From Eledone cirrhosa (Eukaryota): a stretch of 64,000 nt of DNA. Shown piece by piece: positions 1 through 58,250 of this stretch. A model generated the notes under the pieces. That model worked only from the letters and a program-made list of their open reading frames with translations. It did not search any database and was not told where the DNA came from. The translations under genes were made by a program, and so were the position numbers. The first letter of the stretch is position 1, and each line of letters begins with the position of its first letter. The stretch is taken from NCBI GenBank assembly GCA_964016885.1, contig OZ024745.1, positions 28,582,001-28,646,000 of the forward strand, written 5' to 3'.

Positions 1-3000
1 ACAACCCCCAATACTAGTGGGACATACCGAGACACCATCTCTCCCACCCTCACAACCCCCAATACTAGTGGGCCACGCCGAGACACCATCTCTCCCACCC
101 TCATAACCCCCAATACTAGTGGGACATACCGAGACACCATCACTCCCACCCTCACAACCCCCAATACTAGTGGGCCACCCCGAGACACCATCTCTCCCAC
201 CCTCACAACCCCCAATACTAGTGGGACATACCGAGACACCATCTCTCCCGCCCTCACAACCCCCAATACTCAAGTGGGACATACCGAGACACCATCTCTC
301 CCACCCTCACAACCCCCAATACTAGTGGGCCACGCCGAGACACCATCTCTCCCACCCTCACAACCTCCAATACTAGTGGGCCACGCCGAGACACCATCTC
401 TCCCACCCTCACAACCCCAATACTAGTGGGCCACGCCGAGACACCATCTCTCCCACCCTCACAACCCCCAATACTAGTGGGCCACACCGAGACACCATCT
501 CTCCCACCCTCACAACCCCCAATACTAGTGGGCCACGCCGAGACACCAACTCTCCCACACTCACAACCCCCAATACTAGTGGGCCACGCCGAGACACCAT
601 CTCTCCCACCCTCACAACCCCCAATACTAGTGGGCCACCCCGAGACACCAACTCTCCCACCCTCACAACCACCAATACTAGTGGGACATACCGAGTCACC
701 ATCTCTCCCACTTCTCCCACCCTCACAACCCCCAATACTAGTGGGACATACCGAGACACCATCTCTCCAACCCTCACAACCCCCAATACTAGTGGGCCAC
801 GCCGAGACACCATCTCTCCCACCCTCACAACCCCCAATACTTCTGGGCCACCCCGAGACACCATCTCTCCCACCCTCACAACCCCCAATGCTAGTGGGAC
901 ATACAGAGACACCATCATTCCCACCCTCACAACCCCCAATACTAGTGGACCACCCCGAGACACCAACTCTCCCACCCTCACAACCCCCAATACTAGTGGG
1001 ACATACCGATTCACCATCTCTCCCACTTCTCCCACCCTCACAACCCCCATTACTAGTGGGACATACCGAGACACCATCTCTCCAACCCTCACAACCCCCA
1101 ATACTAGTGGGACATACCGAGACACCATCTCTCCCACCCTCACAACCCCCAATACTAGTGGGACATACCGAGGCACCATCTCTCCCACCCTCACAACCCC
1201 CAATACTAGTGGGCCAAGCTGAGACACCATCTCTCCCACCCTCACAACCCCCAATACTAGTGGGACATACCGAGACACCATCTCTCCCACCCTCACAACC
1301 CCCAATACTAGTGGGCCAAGCTGAGACACCATCTCTCCCACCCTCACAACCCCCAATACTAGTGGGACATACCGAGACACCATCTCTCCCACCCTCACAA
1401 CCCCCAATACTAGTGGGCCAAGCTGAGACACCATCTCTCCCACCCTCACAACCCCCAATACTAGTGGGACATACCGAGACACCATCTCTCCCACCCTCAC
1501 AACCCCCAATACTAGTGGGCCAAGCTGAGACACCATCTCTCCCACCCTCACAACCCCCAATACTAGTGGGACATACCGAGACACCATCTCTCCCACCCTC
1601 ACAACCCCCAATACTAGTGGGCCAAGCTGAGACACCATCTCTCCCACCCTCACAACCCCCAATACTAGTGGGACATACCGAGACACCATCACTCCCACCC
1701 TCACAACCCCCAATACTAGTGGGCCACGCCGAGACACCATCTCTCCCACCCTCACAACCCCCAATACTAGTGGGCCACCCCGAGACACCATCTCTCCCAC
1801 CCTCACAACCCCCAATACTAGTGGGACATACCGAGTCACCATCTCTCCCACTTCTCCCACCCTCACAACCCCCAATACTAGTGGGACATACCGAGACACC
1901 ATCTCTCCCACCCTCTCAACCCCCAATACTAGTGGGACATACCGAGACACCATCTCTCCCACCCCCACAACCCCCAATACTAGTGGGACATACCGAGACA
2001 CCATCTCTCCCACCCTCTCAACCCCCAATACTAGTGGGACATACCGAGACACCATCTCTCCCGCCCTCACAACCCCCAATACTAGTGGGACATACCGAGA
2101 CACCATCTCTCCCGCCCTCACAACCCCCAATACTAGTGGGACATACCGAGACACCATCTCTCCCACCCTCTCAACCCCCAATACTAGTGGGACATACCGA
2201 GACACCATCTCTCCCACCCTCTCAACCCCCAATACTAGTGGGACATACCGAGACACCATCTCTCCCGCCCTCTCAACCCCCAATACTAGTGGGACATACC
2301 GAGACACCATCTCTCCCGCCCTCACAACCCCCAATACTAGTGGGACATACCGAGACACCATCTCTCCCACCCTCTCAACCCCCAATACTAGTGGGACATA
2401 CCGAGACACCATCTCTCCCACCCTCTCAACCCCCAATACTAGTGGGACATACCGAGACACCATCTCTCCCGCCCTCACAACCCCCAATACTAGTGGGACA
2501 TACCGAGTCACCATCTCTCCCACCCTCACAACCCCCAATACTAGTGGGACATACCGAGACACCATCTCTCCCACCCCCACAACCCCCAATACTAGTGGGA
2601 CATACCGAGACACCATCTCTCCCACCCTCTCAACCCCCAATACTAGTGGGACATACCGAGACACCATCTCTCCCACCCCCACAACCCCCAATACTAGTGG
2701 GACATACCGAGACACCATCTCTCTCACCCTCAACACCCCCAATACTAGTGGGACATACCGAGACACCATCTCTCTCACCCTCAACACCCCCAATACTAGT
2801 GGGACATACCGAGACACCATCTCTCTCACCCTCAACACCCCCAATACTAGTGGGACATACCGAGACACCATCTCTCCCACCCTCACAACCCCCAATACTA
2901 GTGGGACATACCGAGACACCATCTCTCTCACCCTCAACACCCCCAATACTAGTGGGACATACCGAGACACCATCTCTCCCACCCTCACAACCCCCAATAC

Positions 3001-3450
3001 TAGTGGGACATACCGAGACACCATCTCTCTCACCCTCAACACCCCCAATACTAGTGGGACATACCGAGACACCATCTCTCCCACCCTCACAACCCCCAAT
3101 ACTAGTGGGACATACCGAGACACCATCTCTCTCACCCTCAACACCCCCAATACTAGTGGGACATACCGAGACACCATCTCTCCCACCCTCACAACCCCCA
3201 ATACTAGTGGGACATACCGAGACACCATCTCTCCCACCCCCACAACCCCCAATACTAGTGGGACATACCGAGACACCATCTCTCTCACCCTCAACACCCC
3301 CAATACTAGTGGGACATACCGAGACACCATCTCTCTCACCCTCAACACCCCCAATACTAGTGGGACATACCGAGACACCATCTCTCCCACCCTCTCAACC
3401 CCCAATACTAGTGGGACATACCGAGACACCATCCCTCCCGCCCTAACAAC
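1..3450. repeat. 51-bp tandem minisatellite, ~67 copies, running off the window start
   Basis: Unit GTGGGACATACCGAGACACCATCTCTCCCACCCTCACAACCCCCAATACTA, read directly; variants occur in blocks. Confidence 0.97.
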
Positions 3451-3839
3451 CCTATTAGCCTGTTGCTTATAAATAACAGGCTGCTAGTGAGTGGGGAGAA
3501 GGAGAAGATGGAAGGGGTTTAAACCTGTCTGTAAAACCTATCTTTATTTTTTTATTTTTTTATCTTTACCTTTTTATATATATTTTATTTATATAAATGA
3601 CTTTTAGTGACGGTCAGTAAATAATAAATGAACGCTAAATGACCATCTACCCCCCCGCCCATCTCCCCGCCTTCTTCATTCCCTTTCACGACTCACTGGA
3701 CTTTTAAGCAGTAGCATCAACCATCTCTCAGATGTCACCATTAGTCTTCTTTATATCCTTCCCCACCCCCGAGATATATATGTATTTTTTACGACCCCCT
3801 AATTCTAGCCTTATTGCCAATGCATGGCACGGCACTCTT

Positions 3840-5324: not shown

Positions 5325-5515
5325 TTGGTTTCTGATTTAGGCACAAGGCCAACAATTTTGCGGGAGGGGCAAATCGATTAAATCGACCTCAGTGCATTAC
5401 TGATATTTTTATTTTATCGACCCCGTAAAGATGAAAGCTCAGCAGGATTTCAACTCAGATCGTAAAGGGCCGTAACTCTATGCCATAAAGCATGTTGTCC
5501 GACACTCCACCGATT
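5325..5515 (-). mobile_element. SINE, family 2 (GGGGTCGATAAAATAAAGTACCAG body)
   Basis: Reverse complement of the copy at 17267-17460; other copies near 15885, 16110, 17990, 21970, 23790, 29490, 36480-37130, 43630, 44860, 49465, 62200 and 62500. Confidence 0.8.
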
Positions 5516-8500
5516 ATATTAGTGTGTGTATATATTAGTGTGTGTATATATTTAGTGTGCGTATATATTTAGTGTGTGTATATATATTTAGTGTGTGTAT
5601 ATATTAGTGTGTGTATATATTAGTGTGTGTATATATTTAGTGTGTGTATATATTTAGTGTGTATATTAGTGTGTGTATATATTTAGTGTGTGTATATATT
5701 AATGTGTGTATATATTTAGTGTGTGTATATATTAGTGTGTGTATATATTAGTGTGTATATATTAGTGTGTGTATATATTTAGTGTGTATATATTTAATGT
5801 GTGTATATATTAGTGTGTGTATATATTAGTGTGTGTATATATTTAGTGTGTGTATATATTAGTGTGTGTATATATTTAGTGTGTGTATATATTAGTGTGT
5901 ATATATTAGTGTGTGTATATTAGTGTGTGTATATATTTAGTGTGTGTATATATTTAGTGTGTGTATATATTAGTGTGTGTATATATTTAGTGTGTGTATA
6001 TATTAGTGTGTGTATATATTAGTGTGTATATATTAGTGTGTATATATATTTAGTGCGTGTATATATTAATGTGTATATATATTTAGTGTGTGTATATATT
6101 AATGTGTGTATATATTAGTGTGTGTATATTAGTGTGTGTATATATTTAGTGTGTGTATATATTAGTGTGTATATATTAATGTGTGTATATATTAGTGTGT
6201 GTATATATTAGTGTGTGTATATATTTAGTGTGTGTATATATTTAGTGTGTATATTAGTGTGTGTATATATTTAGTGTGTGTATATATTAATGTGTGTATA
6301 TATTTAGTGTGTGTATATATTAGTGTGTGTATATATTAGTGTGTATATATTAGTGTGTGTATATATTTAGTGTGTATATATTTAGTGTGTGTATATATTA
6401 GTGTGTGTATATATTAGTGTGTGTATATATTAGTGTGTGTATATATTTAGTGTGTGTATATATTAGTGTGTATATATTAGTGTGTGTATATTAGTGTGTG
6501 TATATATTTAGTGTGTGTATATATTTAGTGTGTGTATATATTAGTGTGTGTATATATTTAGTGTGTGTATATATTAGTGTGTGTATATATTAGTGTGTAT
6601 ATATTAGTGTGTGTATATATTAATGTGTATATATATTTAGTGCGTGTATATATTAATGTGTATATATATTTAGTGTGTGTATATATTAATGTGTGTATAT
6701 ATTAGTGTGTGTATATATTTGGTGTGTGTATATATTTAGTGTGTGTATATATTAGTATGTGTATATTAGTGTGTGTATATATTAGTGTGTGTATATATTT
6801 AGTGTGTATATATTTAGTGTGTGTATATATTAGTGTGTGTATATATTAGTGTGTGTATATATTAGTGTGTGTATATATTTAGTGTGTGTATATATTTAGT
6901 GTGTATATTAGTGTGTGTATATATTTAGTGTGTGTATATATTAATGTGTGTATATATTTAGTGTGTGTATATATTAGTGTGTGTATATATTAGTGTGTAT
7001 ATATTAGTGTGTGTATATATTTAGTGTGTATATATTTAGTGTGTGTATATATTAGTGTGTGTATATATTAGTGTGTGTATATATTTAGTGTGTGTATATA
7101 TTAGTGTGTGTATATATTTAGTGTGTGTATATATTAGTGTGTATATATTAGTGTGTGTATATTAGTGTGTGTATATATTAGTGTGTATATATTAGTGTGT
7201 GTATATTAGTGTGTGTATATATTTAGTGTGTGTATATATTAGTGTGTGTATATATTTAGTGTGTGTATATTAGTGTGTGTATATTAGTGTGTGTATATAT
7301 TAATGTGTATATATATTTAGTGTGTGTATATATTAGTGTGTGTATATATTTAGTGTGTGTATATATTAGTGTGTGTATATATTTAGTGTGTGTATATATT
7401 TAGTGTGTGTATATTAGTGTGTGTATATTAGTGTGTATATATTAGTGTGTGTATATTAGTGTGTGTATATTAGTGTGTGTATATTAGTGTGTATATATTA
7501 GTGTGTGTATATTAGTGTGTGTATATTAGTGTGTATATATTAGTGTGTGTATATTAGTGTGTGTATATTAGTGTGTATATATTAGTGTGTGTATATTAGT
7601 GTGTGTATATTAGTGTGTGTATATTAGTGTGTGTATATTAGTGTGTATATATTAGTGTGTGTATATTAGTGTGTGTATATTAGTGTGTATATATTAGTGT
7701 GTGTATATTAGTGTGTGTATATTAGTGTGTATATATTAGTGTGTGTATATTAGTGTGTGTATATTAGTGTGTATATATTAGTGTGTGTATATTAGTGTGT
7801 GTATATTAGTGTGTGTATATTAGTGTGTGTATATTAGTGTGTGTATATTAGTGTGTATATATTAGTGTGTGTGTATATATTAGTGTGTGTATATTAGTGT
7901 GTGTATATTAGTGTGTGTATATTAGTGTGTGTGTATATATTAGTGTGTGTATATTAGTGTGTGTATATTAGTGTGTGTATATTAGTGTGTATATATTAGT
8001 GTGTGTATATTAGTGTGTATATATTAGTGTGTGTATATTAGTGTGTGTATATTAGTGTGTGTATATTAGTGCGTGTATATTAGTGAGTGTATATATTAGT
8101 GAGTGTATATATTAGTGTGTGTATATTAGTGTGTGTATATTAGTGTGTATATATTAGTGTGTGTATATTAGTGTGTGTATATTAGTGTGTGTATATTAGT
8201 GTGTGTATATTAGTGTGTGTATATTAGTGTGTGTATATTAGTGTGTGTATATTAGTGTGTGTATATTAGTGAGTGTATATTAGTGTGTGTATATATTAGT
8301 GTGTGTATATTAGTGTGTGTATATTAGTGTGTGTATATTAGTGTGTGTATATTAGTGTGTGTATATTAGTGTGTGTATATTAGTGTGTGTATATTAGTGT
8401 GTGTATATTAGTGTGTGTATATTAGTGAGTGTATATATTAGTGTGTGTATATTAGTGAGTGTATATATTAGTGTGTGTATATTAGTGTGTGTATATATTA

Positions 8501-9052
8501 GTGTGTGTATATTAGTGAGTGTATATATTAGTGTGTGTATATTAGTGAGTGTATATATTAGTGTGTGTATATTAGTGAGTGTATATATTAGTGTGTGTAT
8601 ATTAGTGTGTGTATATATTAGTGTGTGTATATTAGTGTGTGTATATTAGTGTGTGTATATTAGTGTGTGTATATTAGTGAGTGTATATTAGTGAGTGTAT
8701 ATATTTAGTGTGTGTATATATTTAGTGTGTATATATTAGTGTGTGTATATTAGTGAGTGTATATTAGTGAGTGTATATATTTAGTGTGTGTATATATTTA
8801 GTGTGTATATATTAGTGTGTGTATATTAGTGTGTGTATATTAGTGTGTGTATATATTAGTGTGTATATATTAGTGTGTATATATTAGTGTGTGTATATTA
8901 GTGTGTGTATATTAGTGAGTGTATATTAGTGTGTATATATTAGTGTGTGTATATATTTAGTGTGTGTATATATTTAGTGTGTGTATATTAGTGTGTATAT
9001 ATTAGTGTGTGTATATTAGTGAGTGTATATTAGTGTGTGTATATATTAGTGT
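5515..9052. repeat. (TATATTAGTGTGTG)n-type 14-17 bp satellite, ~3.5 kb
   Basis: Continuous array read directly. Confidence 0.97.
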
Positions 9053-9686
9053 GTTGTTTGGGTGTGTTGTGTTAGGTGTACTTGGCCATGTCTAATGGGG
9101 TTAGTTTGTAGCCATGACACTCCTTAAACCCCCTACCCACCCATAACTGTACAGCAGCCGTCCTTCATCACTGTACCCCACCACCTTTGTACACCAACCC
9201 TCACCTCATCCCATATACCCTATCACTGACACACCACCACTCAATCACTATATCTCCCCACCGTTGTACACTCACCCTTCCTCTCCATCATTATACCTAT
9301 CACACACACATACCCGGTCAGTGAACCACCACCACCACCTCTACTGCTATAGTTATCCCCACCCCGATCTCGGAAGCCCTTAATCCCCACCGCACCCTCA
9401 ATAACTGATGACCCCCAATATAGTCAATGTTTAGACTGGCTGACGTGACCACTGCACTCTCACCTCTTACTACTCTACACCCACCCCGACCACTGTACCC
9501 ACTCCACCCCAGCCCACGTGATCACTGATCTCCCCCAAAACACTTCGCTGGAAACTTCAAAGAGAAACTACGAGATTCCGACGTGATTATCAGTTTTATA
9601 GTGGTCAATGATGTTGAGTTACCTCTGGGAGGTCATCGAGGTTGATACTGAGGCCTCTTTACATTTTGTCACAATTTCTTTGTACT

Positions 9687-10412: not shown

Positions 10413-10883
10413 CGGGGGTCGACAACCCCAGGCTCGCGAAGCATTTTTGTCCGGCCCGCAAACAGGTTTCAATCTTAGGCTAAGCGAACCCTAAAAAAGT
10501 GGTCTGAATTATTTGGGATTAGAATACCTACTAGAGAACACGTCTAGCCACATAACTCACCTAGCTGAACGTAATGTTTTGCCTGACAGCAACAAACAAT
10601 CTAATTCAGACAGAGAATATCTCATGAAACAGTTTACCATTTCTGTCTGTATTTTATTTATAGTAAGGAATGTCATTAAATATCACAAAATTAATTGTTC
10701 TTCTTTAAATCCCGGGATTAAGGTAGCAAAGTAGCCTTCTGGACAGAGCAGTCAAAGGTCAAGGAAATTTATTATATTTTGATATCATGGCTCACCGACG
10801 AGACACTGCATAACTATGTGGCCTGCCGGTGAGACACTGCATAGCGATGTGGTCCGCACACCCCAAAAGGTTGCCGACTCTTG
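10413..10883. mobile_element. Non-autonomous hAT (Charlie-like) DNA transposon
   Basis: Imperfect TIRs CGGGGGTCGACAACC / GGTTGCCGACTCTTG and a perfect 8-bp TSD ATCTATAC (10405-10412, 10884-10891). Confidence 0.88.
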
Positions 10884-10979
10884 ATCTATACGTAGCCGTG
10901 ATCGTATGTATAAACGAAGACCAACGTTCCGGAATTTTATCAAAGTGTGGTGCATAAATAACAAGATAATCTAAGCATA

Positions 10980-11390
10980 ATTTCTGCTCTGTTGTACTTC
11001 TTTGGGGCTTGAATCTTGTCTGTTTTTCTGCCAGGATTTCTTCTGATTTTGCCTTAAGTCTGTTTAGAAGAACTTTTAGCAGTACTTTGCTGGGGTGGCT
11101 AATTAGGCTGATTGTTCTGTAATTCTGGCAGAGTCTTAAGTTTGCTTGGGGGGCGGGGGTATCGTCAGTGATTGGGTTCACTCCTTTGTTCACTTCTTTG
11201 TTTCCCATATCTTCCATATCTATGTTTTGGCCTTCCGTTTTAGGAAATCTGATGGAATGTTATCGACTCCAGGAGAATTACCATCTTCAAGCATGTGCAC
11301 CGCCTCTTCGACTTCCTCCTGGAGTATTAGAGAATCATCAATTTCATTGTTCTTATTGGTGGAATTGTCCCGGATGTTGATGTGATATCT
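10980..11390 (-). mobile_element. RTE-clade LINE reverse transcriptase fragment
   Basis: CQNYRTISLISHPSKVLLKVLLNRL..EKQTRF..RSTTEQ, the typical start of a non-LTR RT domain. Confidence 0.85.
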
Positions 11391-13669: not shown

Positions 13670-13703
13670 GTTGTATATATGTATGTATGTGTATATATAT
13701 ATA

Positions 13704-13868
13704 TAAGTTTATCGTGGGTTCAATCGGGGGTAACCACAGTAAGTAAGGTACTCAATACAAAGCAGAGTATAAATATTTAATATAGAAAGGCTTCTACAGG
13801 ACTAGAACTGATGATTTCTCCCGAAGGAAACAGTTCTAGTCCTGTAGAAGCCTTTCTATATTAAATAT
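13704..13868. mobile_element. Hammerhead-containing insert (family A) with an inverted arm, in (TA)n
   Basis: 38-bp inverted arms 13773-13810 / 13831-13868; homologous to 29945, 49325, 56369 and 58042. Confidence 0.85.
13808..13851 (+). ncRNA. Type I hammerhead core (family A); 5' arm of stem I replaced
   Basis: CUGAUGA-(U)UUC UCCC GAA(G)-GAAA-CAG ttctagtc CUG-UA; GUA at 13844-13846. Confidence 0.7.
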
Positions 13869-13875
13869 ATATACA

Positions 13876-13934
<59 letters not shown>

Positions 13935-13975
13935 CACACACACACACACACACATACACATACAGACAGACAGAC

Positions 13976-14055
<80 letters not shown>

Positions 14056-14100
14056 CACACACACACACATATATATATATATATGTGTGTGTGTGTACCG

Positions 14101-14565
14101 TTCATCAGAGCCACGTACTCCTCTACTTTCCCCGAAAATTATAGAAGTTGGATTCTTATAGAATTCCAGTAATAATCAGGAGCTGATTATACAGAGCGAT
14201 TGCCGGTCCAGCAAAAATTAGGTATTAGGATTGGTGCTCTGAAATAGCGATGTATATATTTGGCAATATACCGTATGTTTAATTAAAAAACATGATTATT
14301 ACTGGAATTCTATAACAATCCAGCTTCTATAATTTTCAGCGAAAGTAGAGGAGGTGCGTGGCTCTGATGAATGCTAACCAGCGTGAAACAGACTGTCAGC
14401 TTCTCTCCCTTCTTTCGCCGAAAAGAAGTAAGTGACATAGTCGCTACTTTAAAACTGATAGCGTATGGTCTTCTAAATGTTTTTAATTAAACATACGGTA
14501 TATTGCCAGATATACTATACATACATTCGTGTATACATCGCTATTTCAGAGCACCAATCCTAATA

Positions 14566-14569
<4 letters not shown>
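14101..14569. mobile_element. Retrozyme-like insert with interleaved inverted segments A-B-A'-B'
   Basis: A 14101-14178 vs A' 14293-14371; B 14219-14293 vs B' 14477-14569; ends in (TA)n. Confidence 0.8.
14360..14401 (+). ncRNA. Minimal type I hammerhead ribozyme
   Basis: GGCU-CUGAUGA-AUGCU aacc AGCGU-GAAA-CAGACUG-UC-AGCU; GUC at 14395-14397; near-palindromic stem III. Confidence 0.8.
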
Positions 14570-14624
<55 letters not shown>

Positions 14625-14763
14625 GTGGAACACTGGAAGGTAATATCCGTAGTGGTAGAGCACTGAGTGGTAGGGACGAGTTAGGTAGAAGTGGTTACAC
14701 AACAGTTAGTTCACCATACCGAGAACAATTGTTTCACCTTCGCGGATCATATATATATATATA

Positions 14764-33689: not shown

Positions 33690-34462
33690 TGTGTGTGTGG
33701 ATAGTCTCTTTTTTCTCTTTCTTTATATATATATATATATATGTGTGTGTCTATATATGTCTATATGTGTGTGTGTGTGTGTTTAGATTGTGAGATAGAG
33801 AGAAAAAGAGAAGGGTGAATAGAGAGACACATACACAACTGTTTAGACTCCAGACACTAAGGTTTCCTTCTCTCTCTTCACTCTTATTCTACCTTACTCT
33901 TTTTCACAACTTCTCTCTTTATAACACTACACACCACTCTCATTCTCTCTCCCACTCTTCCTCTCTCTTACTGTATTACTAATCTGTCACTTACTCTCTC
34001 TATTACTACGCAGCACCTCTCGTTTTGTATTACAACGCCGTCACATACTCTTTCTTTTACTGCACAACACTCACCCTCTCTCTGCCACTACGCCAGCCTC
34101 TCACTTCTTCTCACTTTATATGTCGTTCATTCACTCTGTTAGTCTCTTACTCTGTCAGTTACTTACTCACTCTCTTACTCTTTCACTCCTTAACTAACTC
34201 CCTTACTCTGTTAGTTTCTTACTCGCTATTTCTCATTCGCTCACTAATTCTCTTACTAACTCCCTCCCTCTGTATCTCCTCAGTTCACTGTGTTGTGTGA
34301 TTCTCCGTTACACAGCAGATTGTCTGTGGCAGTCGACGGGAATGGAGCTACCGCAATGGACTATTCTATCACAACGGATATCTTCTATATAACAACAACA
34401 ACAACCACTACCATCATATAGTCCTTATCACCACGCTCTACCATCGATACAGTCTGGGCACT

Positions 34463-36241
34463 ATGATGAATTGGTCGTGCTTTTTATTCGTGGCCCTGTC
34501 TGTGGTGGTAGGCCTGGGTGTAGTGACGGCCTTTACATCAACGTCTGACCGCCAACACGAGCGATGTGAACGTATTGCCATCCCTATGTGTATGAACATG
34601 AGGTACAACATGACGAAGATGCCTAACTTATTGGGGCATACTAACCAGAAAGATGCGGCCATACAGGTGCACGAGTTCCTACCCCTTGTTCAACTGGGTT
34701 GTTCCAAGTTACTACGATTCTTCCTCTGTTCTTTCTACGCCCCGATGTGTACAGAGATGGTCAACGCCGTGTTGGTGGTGTCCGCATGTAGATCCATGTG
34801 TCTGGAGGTGAAATCTAAGTGTGAACCTGTCCTTAAAAATCTAATGTTTCCCTGGCCAGAATCGCTTGACTGTCAACAACTCCCTGAGCACTCCAATAAG
34901 AAACGTCTGTGTATGGAGGCCCCGAATGTCACAGATGAACCAGATATGCAACCAGAAACCATAAATGCTGAATGGTGGAACATTGTCCAGTCTTTTAAAG
35001 AGAAAACCAAAGATGGCAACCACAGGAGATTACCTTATGGACGTTACGGTGGACACAACCATCATGACATGGCTTCTACACGTTCTTTATGTCCGGACAG
35101 ATTTGTCTATGTTGACAAACACGGAGGTCTTAATTATTCTTGTGCTCCACGGTGCGATATTGATGTTTACTTCAAACAAGAAGATAAAAGATTCGCCAAA
35201 ATTTGGCTACTAGTTTGGGCAACTTTCTGTTGTATTTCAACCACAATAACTGTCCTCACCTTTGCAATAGACACTTCACGGTTTAAATATCCCGAAAGAC
35301 CTATTATATTCCTGTCAATGTGTTATGCTGTCTACTCTGGAGCTTACATGATCCGAGGCATTACAGGACCTAATTCTATATCGTGTGACCGCCTCCCGAA
35401 CGGCACGGAGTTCTTAATACAAGAAGGACTGGAGAGCACTTGGTGTATTATAGTATTTTTAATACTTTACTACTTCGGCATGGCCAGTGCTATTTGGTGG
35501 GTGATACTCACCCTCACATGGTACCTGGCTGCAGGACGTAAATGGGTACAAGAAGCTATTGAATCACTCAGTAGTTATTTCCATGTGGCCGCCTGGGCAA
35601 TTCCGGCCGTGAAAACTATTATAATTCTTACAATGCGTCGGGTTGATGGAGACGAATTAACGGGTCTCTGTTTTGTAGGTAACCAAGACATCGTTGCCCT
35701 CACAGGGTTTGTTATCACACCTTTAGTTATATATCTTATCGTTGGAACAATTTTTATATTTGCTGGTTTCTTTGCTATGTTTAAAATCCGCCGGAATTTA
35801 AAACAAGACGGTACAAACATTCGCAAACTTGAGAAACTTATGGCAAAAATTGGAATATTTTCCGTATTGTACACACTACCGGCGACATGTGTTATTGGAT
35901 GTTATTTTTACGAACGGATTAACTTCAACAATTGGAAGACAGAAGCAATGCGCCGCCGATGCCGGAGTACACGGAATGGCCAGGAGGATTGCTCTCTGTC
36001 ACAATCTATACCAACTATCGAAGTATACATGTTGAAAATCTTCATGTCTTTAATCGTTGGAATTACCAGTGGAATGTGGGTTTGGAGTTATAAGACATTC
36101 AATTCATGGAAGCAGTTCTTTTCCAGCCGTTTTTCACGTCGGAAACATATTTATCACGGAAATTACCACCAAGCACCTGTTTGTCTTATGAAGACACGGG
36201 GTCAAAAAGTTATCCCCAAAAACGTGGGAACGAGAGTATGA
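34463..36241 (+). CDS. fzd9/10: Frizzled-9/10-class Wnt receptor, coding sequence in a single exon, 592 aa
   Basis: Signal peptide; CRD CERIAIPMC..YNMTKMPNLLGHTNQKDAAIQVHEF; 7 TM with RFKYPERPIIFLSMCY and IQEGLEST; KTxxxW motif (KTFNSW); C-terminal PDZ-type T-R-V. Confidence 0.96.
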   Translation: MMNWSCFLFVALSVVVGLGVVTAFTSTSDRQHERCERIAIPMCMNMRYNMTKMPNLLGHTNQKDAAIQVHEFLPLVQLGCSKLLRFFLCSFYAPMCTEMVNAVLVVSACRSMCLEVKSKCEPVLKNLMFPWPESLDCQQLPEHSNKKRLCMEAPNVTDEPDMQPETINAEWWNIVQSFKEKTKDGNHRRLPYGRYGGHNHHDMASTRSLCPDRFVYVDKHGGLNYSCAPRCDIDVYFKQEDKRFAKIWLLVWATFCCISTTITVLTFAIDTSRFKYPERPIIFLSMCYAVYSGAYMIRGITGPNSISCDRLPNGTEFLIQEGLESTWCIIVFLILYYFGMASAIWWVILTLTWYLAAGRKWVQEAIESLSSYFHVAAWAIPAVKTIIILTMRRVDGDELTGLCFVGNQDIVALTGFVITPLVIYLIVGTIFIFAGFFAMFKIRRNLKQDGTNIRKLEKLMAKIGIFSVLYTLPATCVIGCYFYERINFNNWKTEAMRRRCRSTRNGQEDCSLSQSIPTIEVYMLKIFMSLIVGITSGMWVWSYKTFNSWKQFFSSRFSRRKHIYHGNYHQAPVCLMKTRGQKVIPKNVGTRV

Positions 36242-50750: not shown

Positions 50751-51340
50751 CATTATAATAAATGTTCGGTAAACCCATACGTACATATATATATGTGTGC
50801 ATGTATGTATATATATACATACTACTGTACGTCTGTATACATATATGTATGTACGTGTACATACTTACATTTAAGTAACAGCCGTACTAAGAGTGAGAAA
50901 TGAAATTTCGTTTCATTATTTCCATTTATTGTTTTCGGTACGCCCGGCCGACTAACTCACTCGATACGCAAATTAGGCTGCTCAGCCGTTAATATGCATA
51001 AGGAAAGTATATACTTTCAGACGTTCAACCATCTGGCAGGAAGGTATACGATGCTGACGATAGCTAATAAGCTTGAAACTAGTACATCGTTCCTTTGTCA
51101 GTGTTGAACAAAAGGGCAACGATGGTTGCTAAACACTGTACGGCGTAATTCGGGCTGTTTGTTTGTTTACAAACAAACCGAGCATTATAATAAATGTTCG
51201 GCAAATCCATACGTACATATATATATATATATGTGTGCATGTATGTATATATATATATACATACTACTGTATGTCTGTATACATTTAAGTACCAGCCGCA
51301 CTAAGAGTGAGAAATGAAATTTCGTTTCATTCTTTTCCAT
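50751..51340 (+). mobile_element. Retrozyme/pLTR-like unit: ~160-bp direct repeats flanking a hammerhead
   Basis: 50751-50925 repeated at 51183-51340; (TA)n on both sides. Confidence 0.78.
51048..51090 (+). ncRNA. Minimal type I hammerhead ribozyme
   Basis: ACGAUG-CUGACGA-uAGCU aaua AGCUu-GAAA-CUAG-UA-CAUCGU; 6-bp stem I; palindromic ACUAGU; cleavage predicted after A51084. Confidence 0.88.
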
Positions 51341-58041: not shown

Positions 58042-58250
58042 AAGTTTATCCCAGGTTCAATCGAGGGTAACCACAATAAGTAAAGTACTCAATACATAGC
58101 AGAGTATAAATATTTAATATAGAAATGGCTTCAACGGGACCAGAACTGTTTCATTCGGGAGAAATCATCAGGAAGCCCTGATGATCAGAGCTTCCTGATA
58201 ATTTCTCCCGAATGAAACAGTTCTGGTCCCGTTGAAGCCATTTCTATATT
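58042..58250. mobile_element. Family A head-to-head palindrome with two hammerheads
   Basis: Minus 58128-58176 GCUUC-CUGAUGA..GAAA..GUU-GAAGC; plus 58190-58238 with a CUGAUAA variant. Confidence 0.85.

Follow-up and report, generated by a model that had tools for sequence, protein, structure and literature searches.

Animal non-LTR retrozymes are described as tandem units of 170–400 nt with one type I hammerhead each; retrozyme circles are reported to be expressed in coral, mussel and axolotl, and Penelope-like elements (PLEs) were proposed as their mobilisers (PMC7229834). Retrozymes have also been argued to be non-autonomous PLE derivatives (Li, Clavereau and Pollet 2026, bioRxiv 10.64898/2026.07.22.740005). 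For PLEs, a circle was proposed as the template for copies of more than one unit (PMC4209133). PLE insertions are described as carrying partial tandems and an inverted 5'-truncated copy, often with a 30–40-bp tail at one end only, and as biased toward (TA)n (PMC8557442). According to PMC11167929, a PLE protein nicks and extends both DNA strands, starts synthesis at two internal sites that bound the tail, and has unprocessed RNA as its main in vitro substrate.

Here we analysed a locus in a 64,000-nt window (the whole stretch of DNA presented), in which two oppositely oriented copies of a hammerhead-bearing repeat meet beside a microsatellite. The features are as follows.

13934–14096, no strand: left-flank microsatellites (AC)n, (TA)n and (GT)n
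14099–14178, minus strand: left arm, segment A (unit positions 1–81), with an atypical outer end inside hammerhead stem II
14179–14218, minus strand: left arm, 40-nt spacer (unit positions 278–317), which closes the 317-nt cycle
14219–14293, minus strand: left arm, segment B (unit positions 184–277, with a 19-nt deletion)
14293–14569, plus strand: right arm, unit positions 1–277, 5'-truncated
14333–14424, plus strand: predicted long hairpin around the hammerhead (predicted fold)
14360–14401, plus strand: type I hammerhead motif, predicted cut after GUC 14397
14539–14569, plus strand: tail, between the short 3' end (about 234–246) and the long 3' end (273–277)
14568–14621, no strand: (TA)27, the microsatellite target into which the right arm's 3' end runs

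The right arm reads A'-hammerhead-middle-B' on the plus strand and runs straight into (TA)n at 14568–14621; an earlier note made from the sequence had read 14293–14569 in this way, and the sequence bears it out. The left arm, on the minus strand, reads B (14293 to 14219), spacer (14218 to 14179) and A (14178 to 14099). The same note had given this order correctly but had stopped the match two bases short of 14099. The arms meet 5' end to 5' end with a 1-nt overlap at 14293, and BLAST inside the window gave arm matches with E = 1e-33 and 1e-19. Over the 81 nt of segment A the arms show 5 substitutions and one gap; in segment B they show one substitution, an additional base in a homopolymer and a 19-nt length difference. 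We assign the last to a deletion in the left arm, the 19 bases being present in the top-scoring family copies. Non-majority alleles common to both arms occur at three positions, one of them present in only 7 of 92 other loci, so both arms likely derive from one source lineage. The outer end of the inverted arm, at unit position 81, differs from the usual 230–248 and belongs to a minority class of 'other' ends (9 of 50 position-ordered two-armed copies); it likely reflects later deletion or off-site priming. No ORF of at least 120 aa overlaps the locus. A putative intron was noted by eye, with GTAAGT near 14428 and TTTCAG near 14545.

All core bases of the hammerhead are present, with CUGAUGA at 14364–14370 and GAAA at 14385–14388. 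Stem I (GGCU/AGCU, 4 bp, 14360–14363 with 14398–14401) lies within the long predicted hairpin. Stem II is AUGCU/AGCGU (5 bp, 14371–14375 with 14380–14384), stem III is palindromic (14388–14396), and GUC ends at 14397. Rfam at gathering thresholds returned 0 hits in the window. Across the 317-nt family the core is intact in 64 of 106 unit passes; one locus (L074) has two cores in tandem, and several loci cover two or three. Two linked subfamily states were seen at unit positions 79 and 105, A79 occurring with the cut triplet GUC and U79 with GUU. The U79 state amounts to a U-U mismatch at the base of stem II, a likeness to HHR_Amex2 as described from axolotl. A profile built from nine U1/U2 upstream regions gave only a weak match to an snRNA-type promoter in the unit, the best site scoring 10 bits as against 21–31 for real promoters; about 0.2 sites as good are expected per unit by chance. 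The U1/U2 upstream regions themselves (L309–L361) share AATTA near -90, TCAGT near -57 and a TATA-like block near -30.

The genome searched comprises 3.0 Gb and is rich in microsatellites; a frizzled ORF in the window (34301–36241) marks it as that of an animal. With the right arm as query, 2,868 first-look candidates came up, of which the 40 scored had 92–95% identity, and a 674-nt natural tandem as query gave 3,472; we put the family at roughly 3,000 dispersed copies. The earlier note had proposed a head-to-tail unit of 277 + 40 = 317 nt with one hammerhead, and this is the unit length of natural direct tandems at other loci. It had also asked whether the B-spacer-A junction recurs genome-wide. 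The whole B-spacer-A probe is present in 18 of 29 other top loci, so that the junction is not a one-off rearrangement. All arms map to one 317-nt cycle, on which direct arms extend over as much as 1,103 nt, or 3.5 units. Because score-chosen samples favour long copies, position-ordered samples were drawn. The exact pattern of long 3' end plus TA had 504 matches and the short-end pattern 767, with 0 for the reversed controls; from these we took 89 long-end copies (29, one duplicate having been dropped, and the 60 next in position order) and 30 short-end copies. Among the 89, the median main-arm length is 186 nt, and 21 main arms are longer than one unit. Most copies are shorter than 1.5 units, 5'-truncated, two-armed and in (TA)n. 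Unit passes (171) diverge by a median of 6.8% from the column majority, by which measure the family is aged.

Target-site duplications of retrozymes, when present, are described as longer than 4 bp. No convincing case was found among 89 (TA)n-ended copies; an imperfect duplication of about 37 nt, seen by eye, flanks L007. Three loci at G000:C4:58.6-59.0 Mb (L076, L079, L082) have the same flanks and are probably a segmental duplication of one insertion, which carries a short target duplication. Contigs of a second organism also align to the unit, for example over 128 nt with 3 differences at 14426–14553, so that a relative likely has the family as well.

The insertions have a regular anatomy. 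(TA)n terminates nearly all of 30 loci chosen by whole-unit score, and 3' ends cluster at unit positions 234–246 and 273–277, about 30 nt apart. An adjacent inverted arm, joined at the 5' end, accompanies 50 of the 89 position-ordered long-end copies, so the two opposite-direction copies that the earlier note had seen at one site are the family's usual build. The outer ends of these 50 inverted arms lie at 230–248 in 39 cases, at 270–277 in 2 and elsewhere ('other') in 9. Long-end main arms have a short-end rather than a long-end inverted partner in a ratio of 40:2, and short-end main arms have a long-end rather than a short-end partner in a ratio of 10:1. Overall, the two arms have opposite ends in 50 of 53 classed insertions (Fisher p=3.6e-8; excluding 12 'other' ends, and with one insertion present in both samples). 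Many head-to-head junctions overlap by 1–7 nt and some by 18–20 nt. In many insertions, for example L153 and L182, neither arm contains the other, which indicates that each arm was primed on RNA separately. This anatomy matches the published PLE footprint.

Judged by its sequence, the 317-nt unit is a new family of the known animal non-LTR retrozymes, and it has the sequence-level features of both a retrozyme and a non-autonomous PLE. Like the retrozymes described in PMC7229834 and the 2026 preprint, it is a non-coding head-to-tail unit with one type I hammerhead and a short palindromic stem III, and its 317 nt lie within the span of about 150–450 nt allowed for the class. It likewise occurs as many dispersed monomers and short multimers and coexists with PLEs. 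Two-armed (TA)n insertions with two fixed ends, the usual form here, do not figure in the results and discussion of those two descriptions. With EN+ PLE insertions, as described in PMC8557442 and PMC11167929, it shares 5' truncation, partial tandems, an inverted 5'-truncated copy and a (TA)n bias, as well as a tail of about 30 nt at one end only and a hammerhead upstream of two internal 3' ends. An autonomous PLE has an ORF for RT plus GIY-YIG; the unit differs from EN+ PLEs in having neither, being only 317 nt long with arms that stay on the cycle. A further parallel is provided by Chlamys elements such as MRC1, which are described as non-autonomous, with pseudo-LTRs and multicopy head-to-tail insertions (PMC8557442). 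Chlamys elements differ in being algal and of a clade said to be without canonical hammerheads, and in sharing 3' sequence with an autonomous family (PMC8557442); none was found for the 317-nt unit in 88 PLE-type loci. Retrozymes as a class, the circle model and the connection with PLEs have all been published before; what this locus adds is a new family. In the literature, subscription journals and supplements aside, we found no description of two-armed, tail-paired retrozyme insertions.

We favour, with a probability of about 0.6, the reading that the locus holds a non-coding 317-nt hammerhead repeat as a two-armed, 5'-truncated copy, likely inserted at (TA)n by PLE machinery from an uncut, likely multimeric RNA template. 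On this reading, (TA)n DNA would be nicked by the RT/GIY-YIG protein of a PLE, and cDNA would be primed on that RNA from both DNA ends. One end would start cDNA at the tail site (273–277) and the other at the short site (234–246). Both cDNAs would halt at variable points and be joined head to head via short overlaps. The template would be either a multimeric circle or a transcript that reads through a tandem copy. Until now the case for PLEs as mobilisers of retrozymes has drawn on co-occurrence and phylogeny. The insertion anatomy gives it more direct genomic support, through the fixed tail and short ends, their near-strict pairing on opposite arms and the read-through of the predicted cut site. 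PMC8557442 asks how tails and inverted repeats arise in PLEs, and the unit also offers a small RNA substrate for that question.

The nature of the template was approached through the cut site, since copying of cut linear monomers predicts arms that end there. Of 49 main arms that reach the site in the position-ordered sample, 48 pass it and one stops; two inverted arms have their 5' end at the site, and an alignment of copies showed no excess of gaps at the cut columns. Since cDNA synthesis runs through this site, the template was uncut, either a multimer or a circle. Alleles at six diagnostic sites are concordant in 64 of 66 comparisons between tandem units and 200 of 222 between inverted arms, as against 52% between loci; a score-biased set of 95 loci gave 217 of 252 and 225 of 266, respectively. 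Tandem units have 16% of rare alleles in common, inverted arms 5.5% and different loci 1.5%. Such allele sharing within insertions fits a circle or a homogeneous tandem transcript equally. The earlier note had taken the template to be head-to-tail or circular. The head-to-tail cycle is upheld; the circle is not established, as the junction could equally come from an uncut tandem transcript.

The strongest alternative, which we nevertheless consider unlikely, shares the two-ended PLE insertion but makes the template mainly a monomeric 317-nt circle, formed by hammerhead cleavage and ligation and copied repeatedly, a model proposed in PMC7229834 and PMC4209133. The near absence of stops and gaps at the cut site, the near-complete concordance within insertions and the excess of shared rare alleles in tandems over the between-locus level are all as it expects. 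Natural monomers are moreover predicted to fold stably as circles, at -81.4 kcal/mol for one (40 shuffles, -55.3 +/- 4.7) and -76.6 kcal/mol for a second (40 shuffles, -55.4 +/- 5.3). No long source array of the 317-nt family was seen among the 40 scored of 3,472 candidates, which also speaks for a circle. Against this, the DNA features counted in its favour also fit an uncut tandem transcript, and DNA footprints by themselves do not establish a monomeric circle. Ribozyme mutants are reported still to insert (PMC11167929), and one of nine retrozyme dimers is reported to be cleaved in vitro (bioRxiv 10.64898/2026.07.22.740005).

A young 310-nt sister family bears on the same choice. Its unit (L364:1840-2149) is co-linear with the 317-nt unit over the whole cycle and 68% identical to it (208/306). 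Sister copies are about 99% identical and form arrays of 10 or more units, compared with a median divergence of 6.8% and at most 3.5 units in the 317-nt family. The hammerhead and its enclosing hairpin (a predicted fold) are retained by changed sequence. The sister family also has two ends, 31 nt apart, and these are paired in 24 of 26 two-armed loci, one end being fixed by the query. Copies lie at L364:1704-2149, G000:C4:164378339 and many other places, with two-armed arrays of up to at least 14 units. Variants were compared among units on the premise that a monomeric circle predicts all-or-none sharing. In 32 sister loci, chosen as best-scoring or long, 81 variants were singletons and 27 recurrent. 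Two of the recurrent variants occur in every unit of their arrays, as a single-unit circle predicts, whereas 25 occur in only some units, several with periods of 2–5 units. In seven sister loci, unit-specific variants are common to particular units of both arms. This partial sharing makes multimeric templates look common in the sister family. Arrays of 10 or more units do require a growth route, a point in favour of the monomeric circle; part of the variant pattern could stem from subsequent block duplication, from gene conversion or from errors of assembly. In the sister family, the pattern favours multimeric templates.

We also entertain, as an unlikely speculation, a more specific scheme in which the RNAs of animal retrozymes form circles of one unit or of two to five. 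A dimer of PLE protein would copy such a circle from the two ends of a staggered (TA)n break, with roles necessarily divided: synthesis would begin at the tail site from one end and about 30 nt upstream from the other. If this were true, the 317-nt and 310-nt units would amount to protein-free substrates of minimal size, accounting for both the PLE tail and the inverted pseudo-LTR; the driver would be the RT+GIY-YIG family found next to one copy, at L243.

As to a coding partner, the genome holds 10,595 GIY-YIG candidates, a point in favour of the preferred reading of PLE-driven insertion from an uncut template. Among these, 88 PLE-type loci were examined (30 GIY-YIG loci, 20 long-ORF loci, and 30 and 8 copies of the RT+GIY-YIG family adjoining one copy); a family profile was run against the first 50 of them and the window. 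None of the 88 has a terminal repeat homologous to the unit, which counts against the preferred reading, and only nested insertions were encountered. Flanks of 9 of the 89 position-ordered copies match long ORFs from the PLE-type loci, and just one of these (L198/L243) abuts the 5' end of an arm. There (L243:500-2620, G000:C1:254643295 onward), a 126-nt arm lies head to head with a 5'-truncated RT+GIY-YIG element, the single such join in 119 sampled copies. It may be a candidate mixed insertion, or it may reflect chance nesting. This RT+GIY-YIG family has a cysteine linker of the Neptune/Nematis type, a trait given for that clade in PMC8557442, and one of its copies ends in (TA)n and carries an inverted arm of its own, without a tail. 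At L364 a sister copy lies directly upstream of a near full-length RT+GIY-YIG element.

These data also bear on a very improbable reading, in which the family stems from a long coding PLE, each copy being a 5'-truncated piece of its terminal repeat, with a 317-nt cycle that is incidental. It has some precedent, as palindromic-stem-III hammerheads are described in PLE terminal repeats, and opposite-strand pairs 100–700 bp apart have been ascribed to truncated PLEs (PMC4209133). It is largely refuted by the 21 of 89 arms that exceed one whole unit yet remain on the cycle and by the lack of a homologous terminal repeat in the 88 PLE-type loci. Furthermore, 0 of the 89 position-ordered arms continue in the same direction into an ORF, contrary to the possibility, raised in the earlier note, that the unit is merely the terminal repeat of a coding element. 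The 5' ends of different copies share no non-family sequence, only unrelated host repeats being found there.

Mobilisation by a LINE enzyme, with inversions arising through classical twin priming or fold-back copying of the first cDNA, is more improbable still. Short-overlap 5' inversions are typical of twin priming, and the junction overlaps seen here recall them. In our insertions, however, the arms overlap in sequence, main-arm 5' ends are spread over the cycle rather than placed at the second start, and the 3' ends are internal, fixed and about 30 nt apart, without poly(A). Fold-back synthesis and classical twin priming were ruled out as general explanations, as neither of the two arms has to include the other. 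A one-off local rearrangement or an artefact of assembly, conceivable here since the locus sits between long microsatellites and none of the aligned reads or contig pieces shown spans the whole locus, is refuted for the family by the same junction and two-armed build at dozens of independent loci, and the sequences of the two arms here differ.

Other features were observed in and near the window. A second hammerhead-motif family, CUGAUGA...GAAACAGUUCU(A/G)GUC, occurs at 13777–13870 (plus strand), 29947 (plus strand) and 58110–58250 (both strands); it lies in fold-back arms beside (TA)n, and read depth is very high at 13700–13860. A third hammerhead-motif family is present at 51054 (plus strand) and, at L143:8150-9724, forms a tandem of units of about 490–510 nt. 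Read depth marks the right flank past (TA)n, at 14624–14760, as itself a high-copy repeat. Long minisatellites with 51-nt and 14–16-nt units occupy 1–3452 and 5515–9054. A weak reverse transcriptase fragment lies at 10792–11259 on the minus strand (RVT_1, E=3e-5, below cut-off), and an uninterrupted 646-aa ORF with Fz and Frizzled domains spans 34301–36241 on the plus strand.
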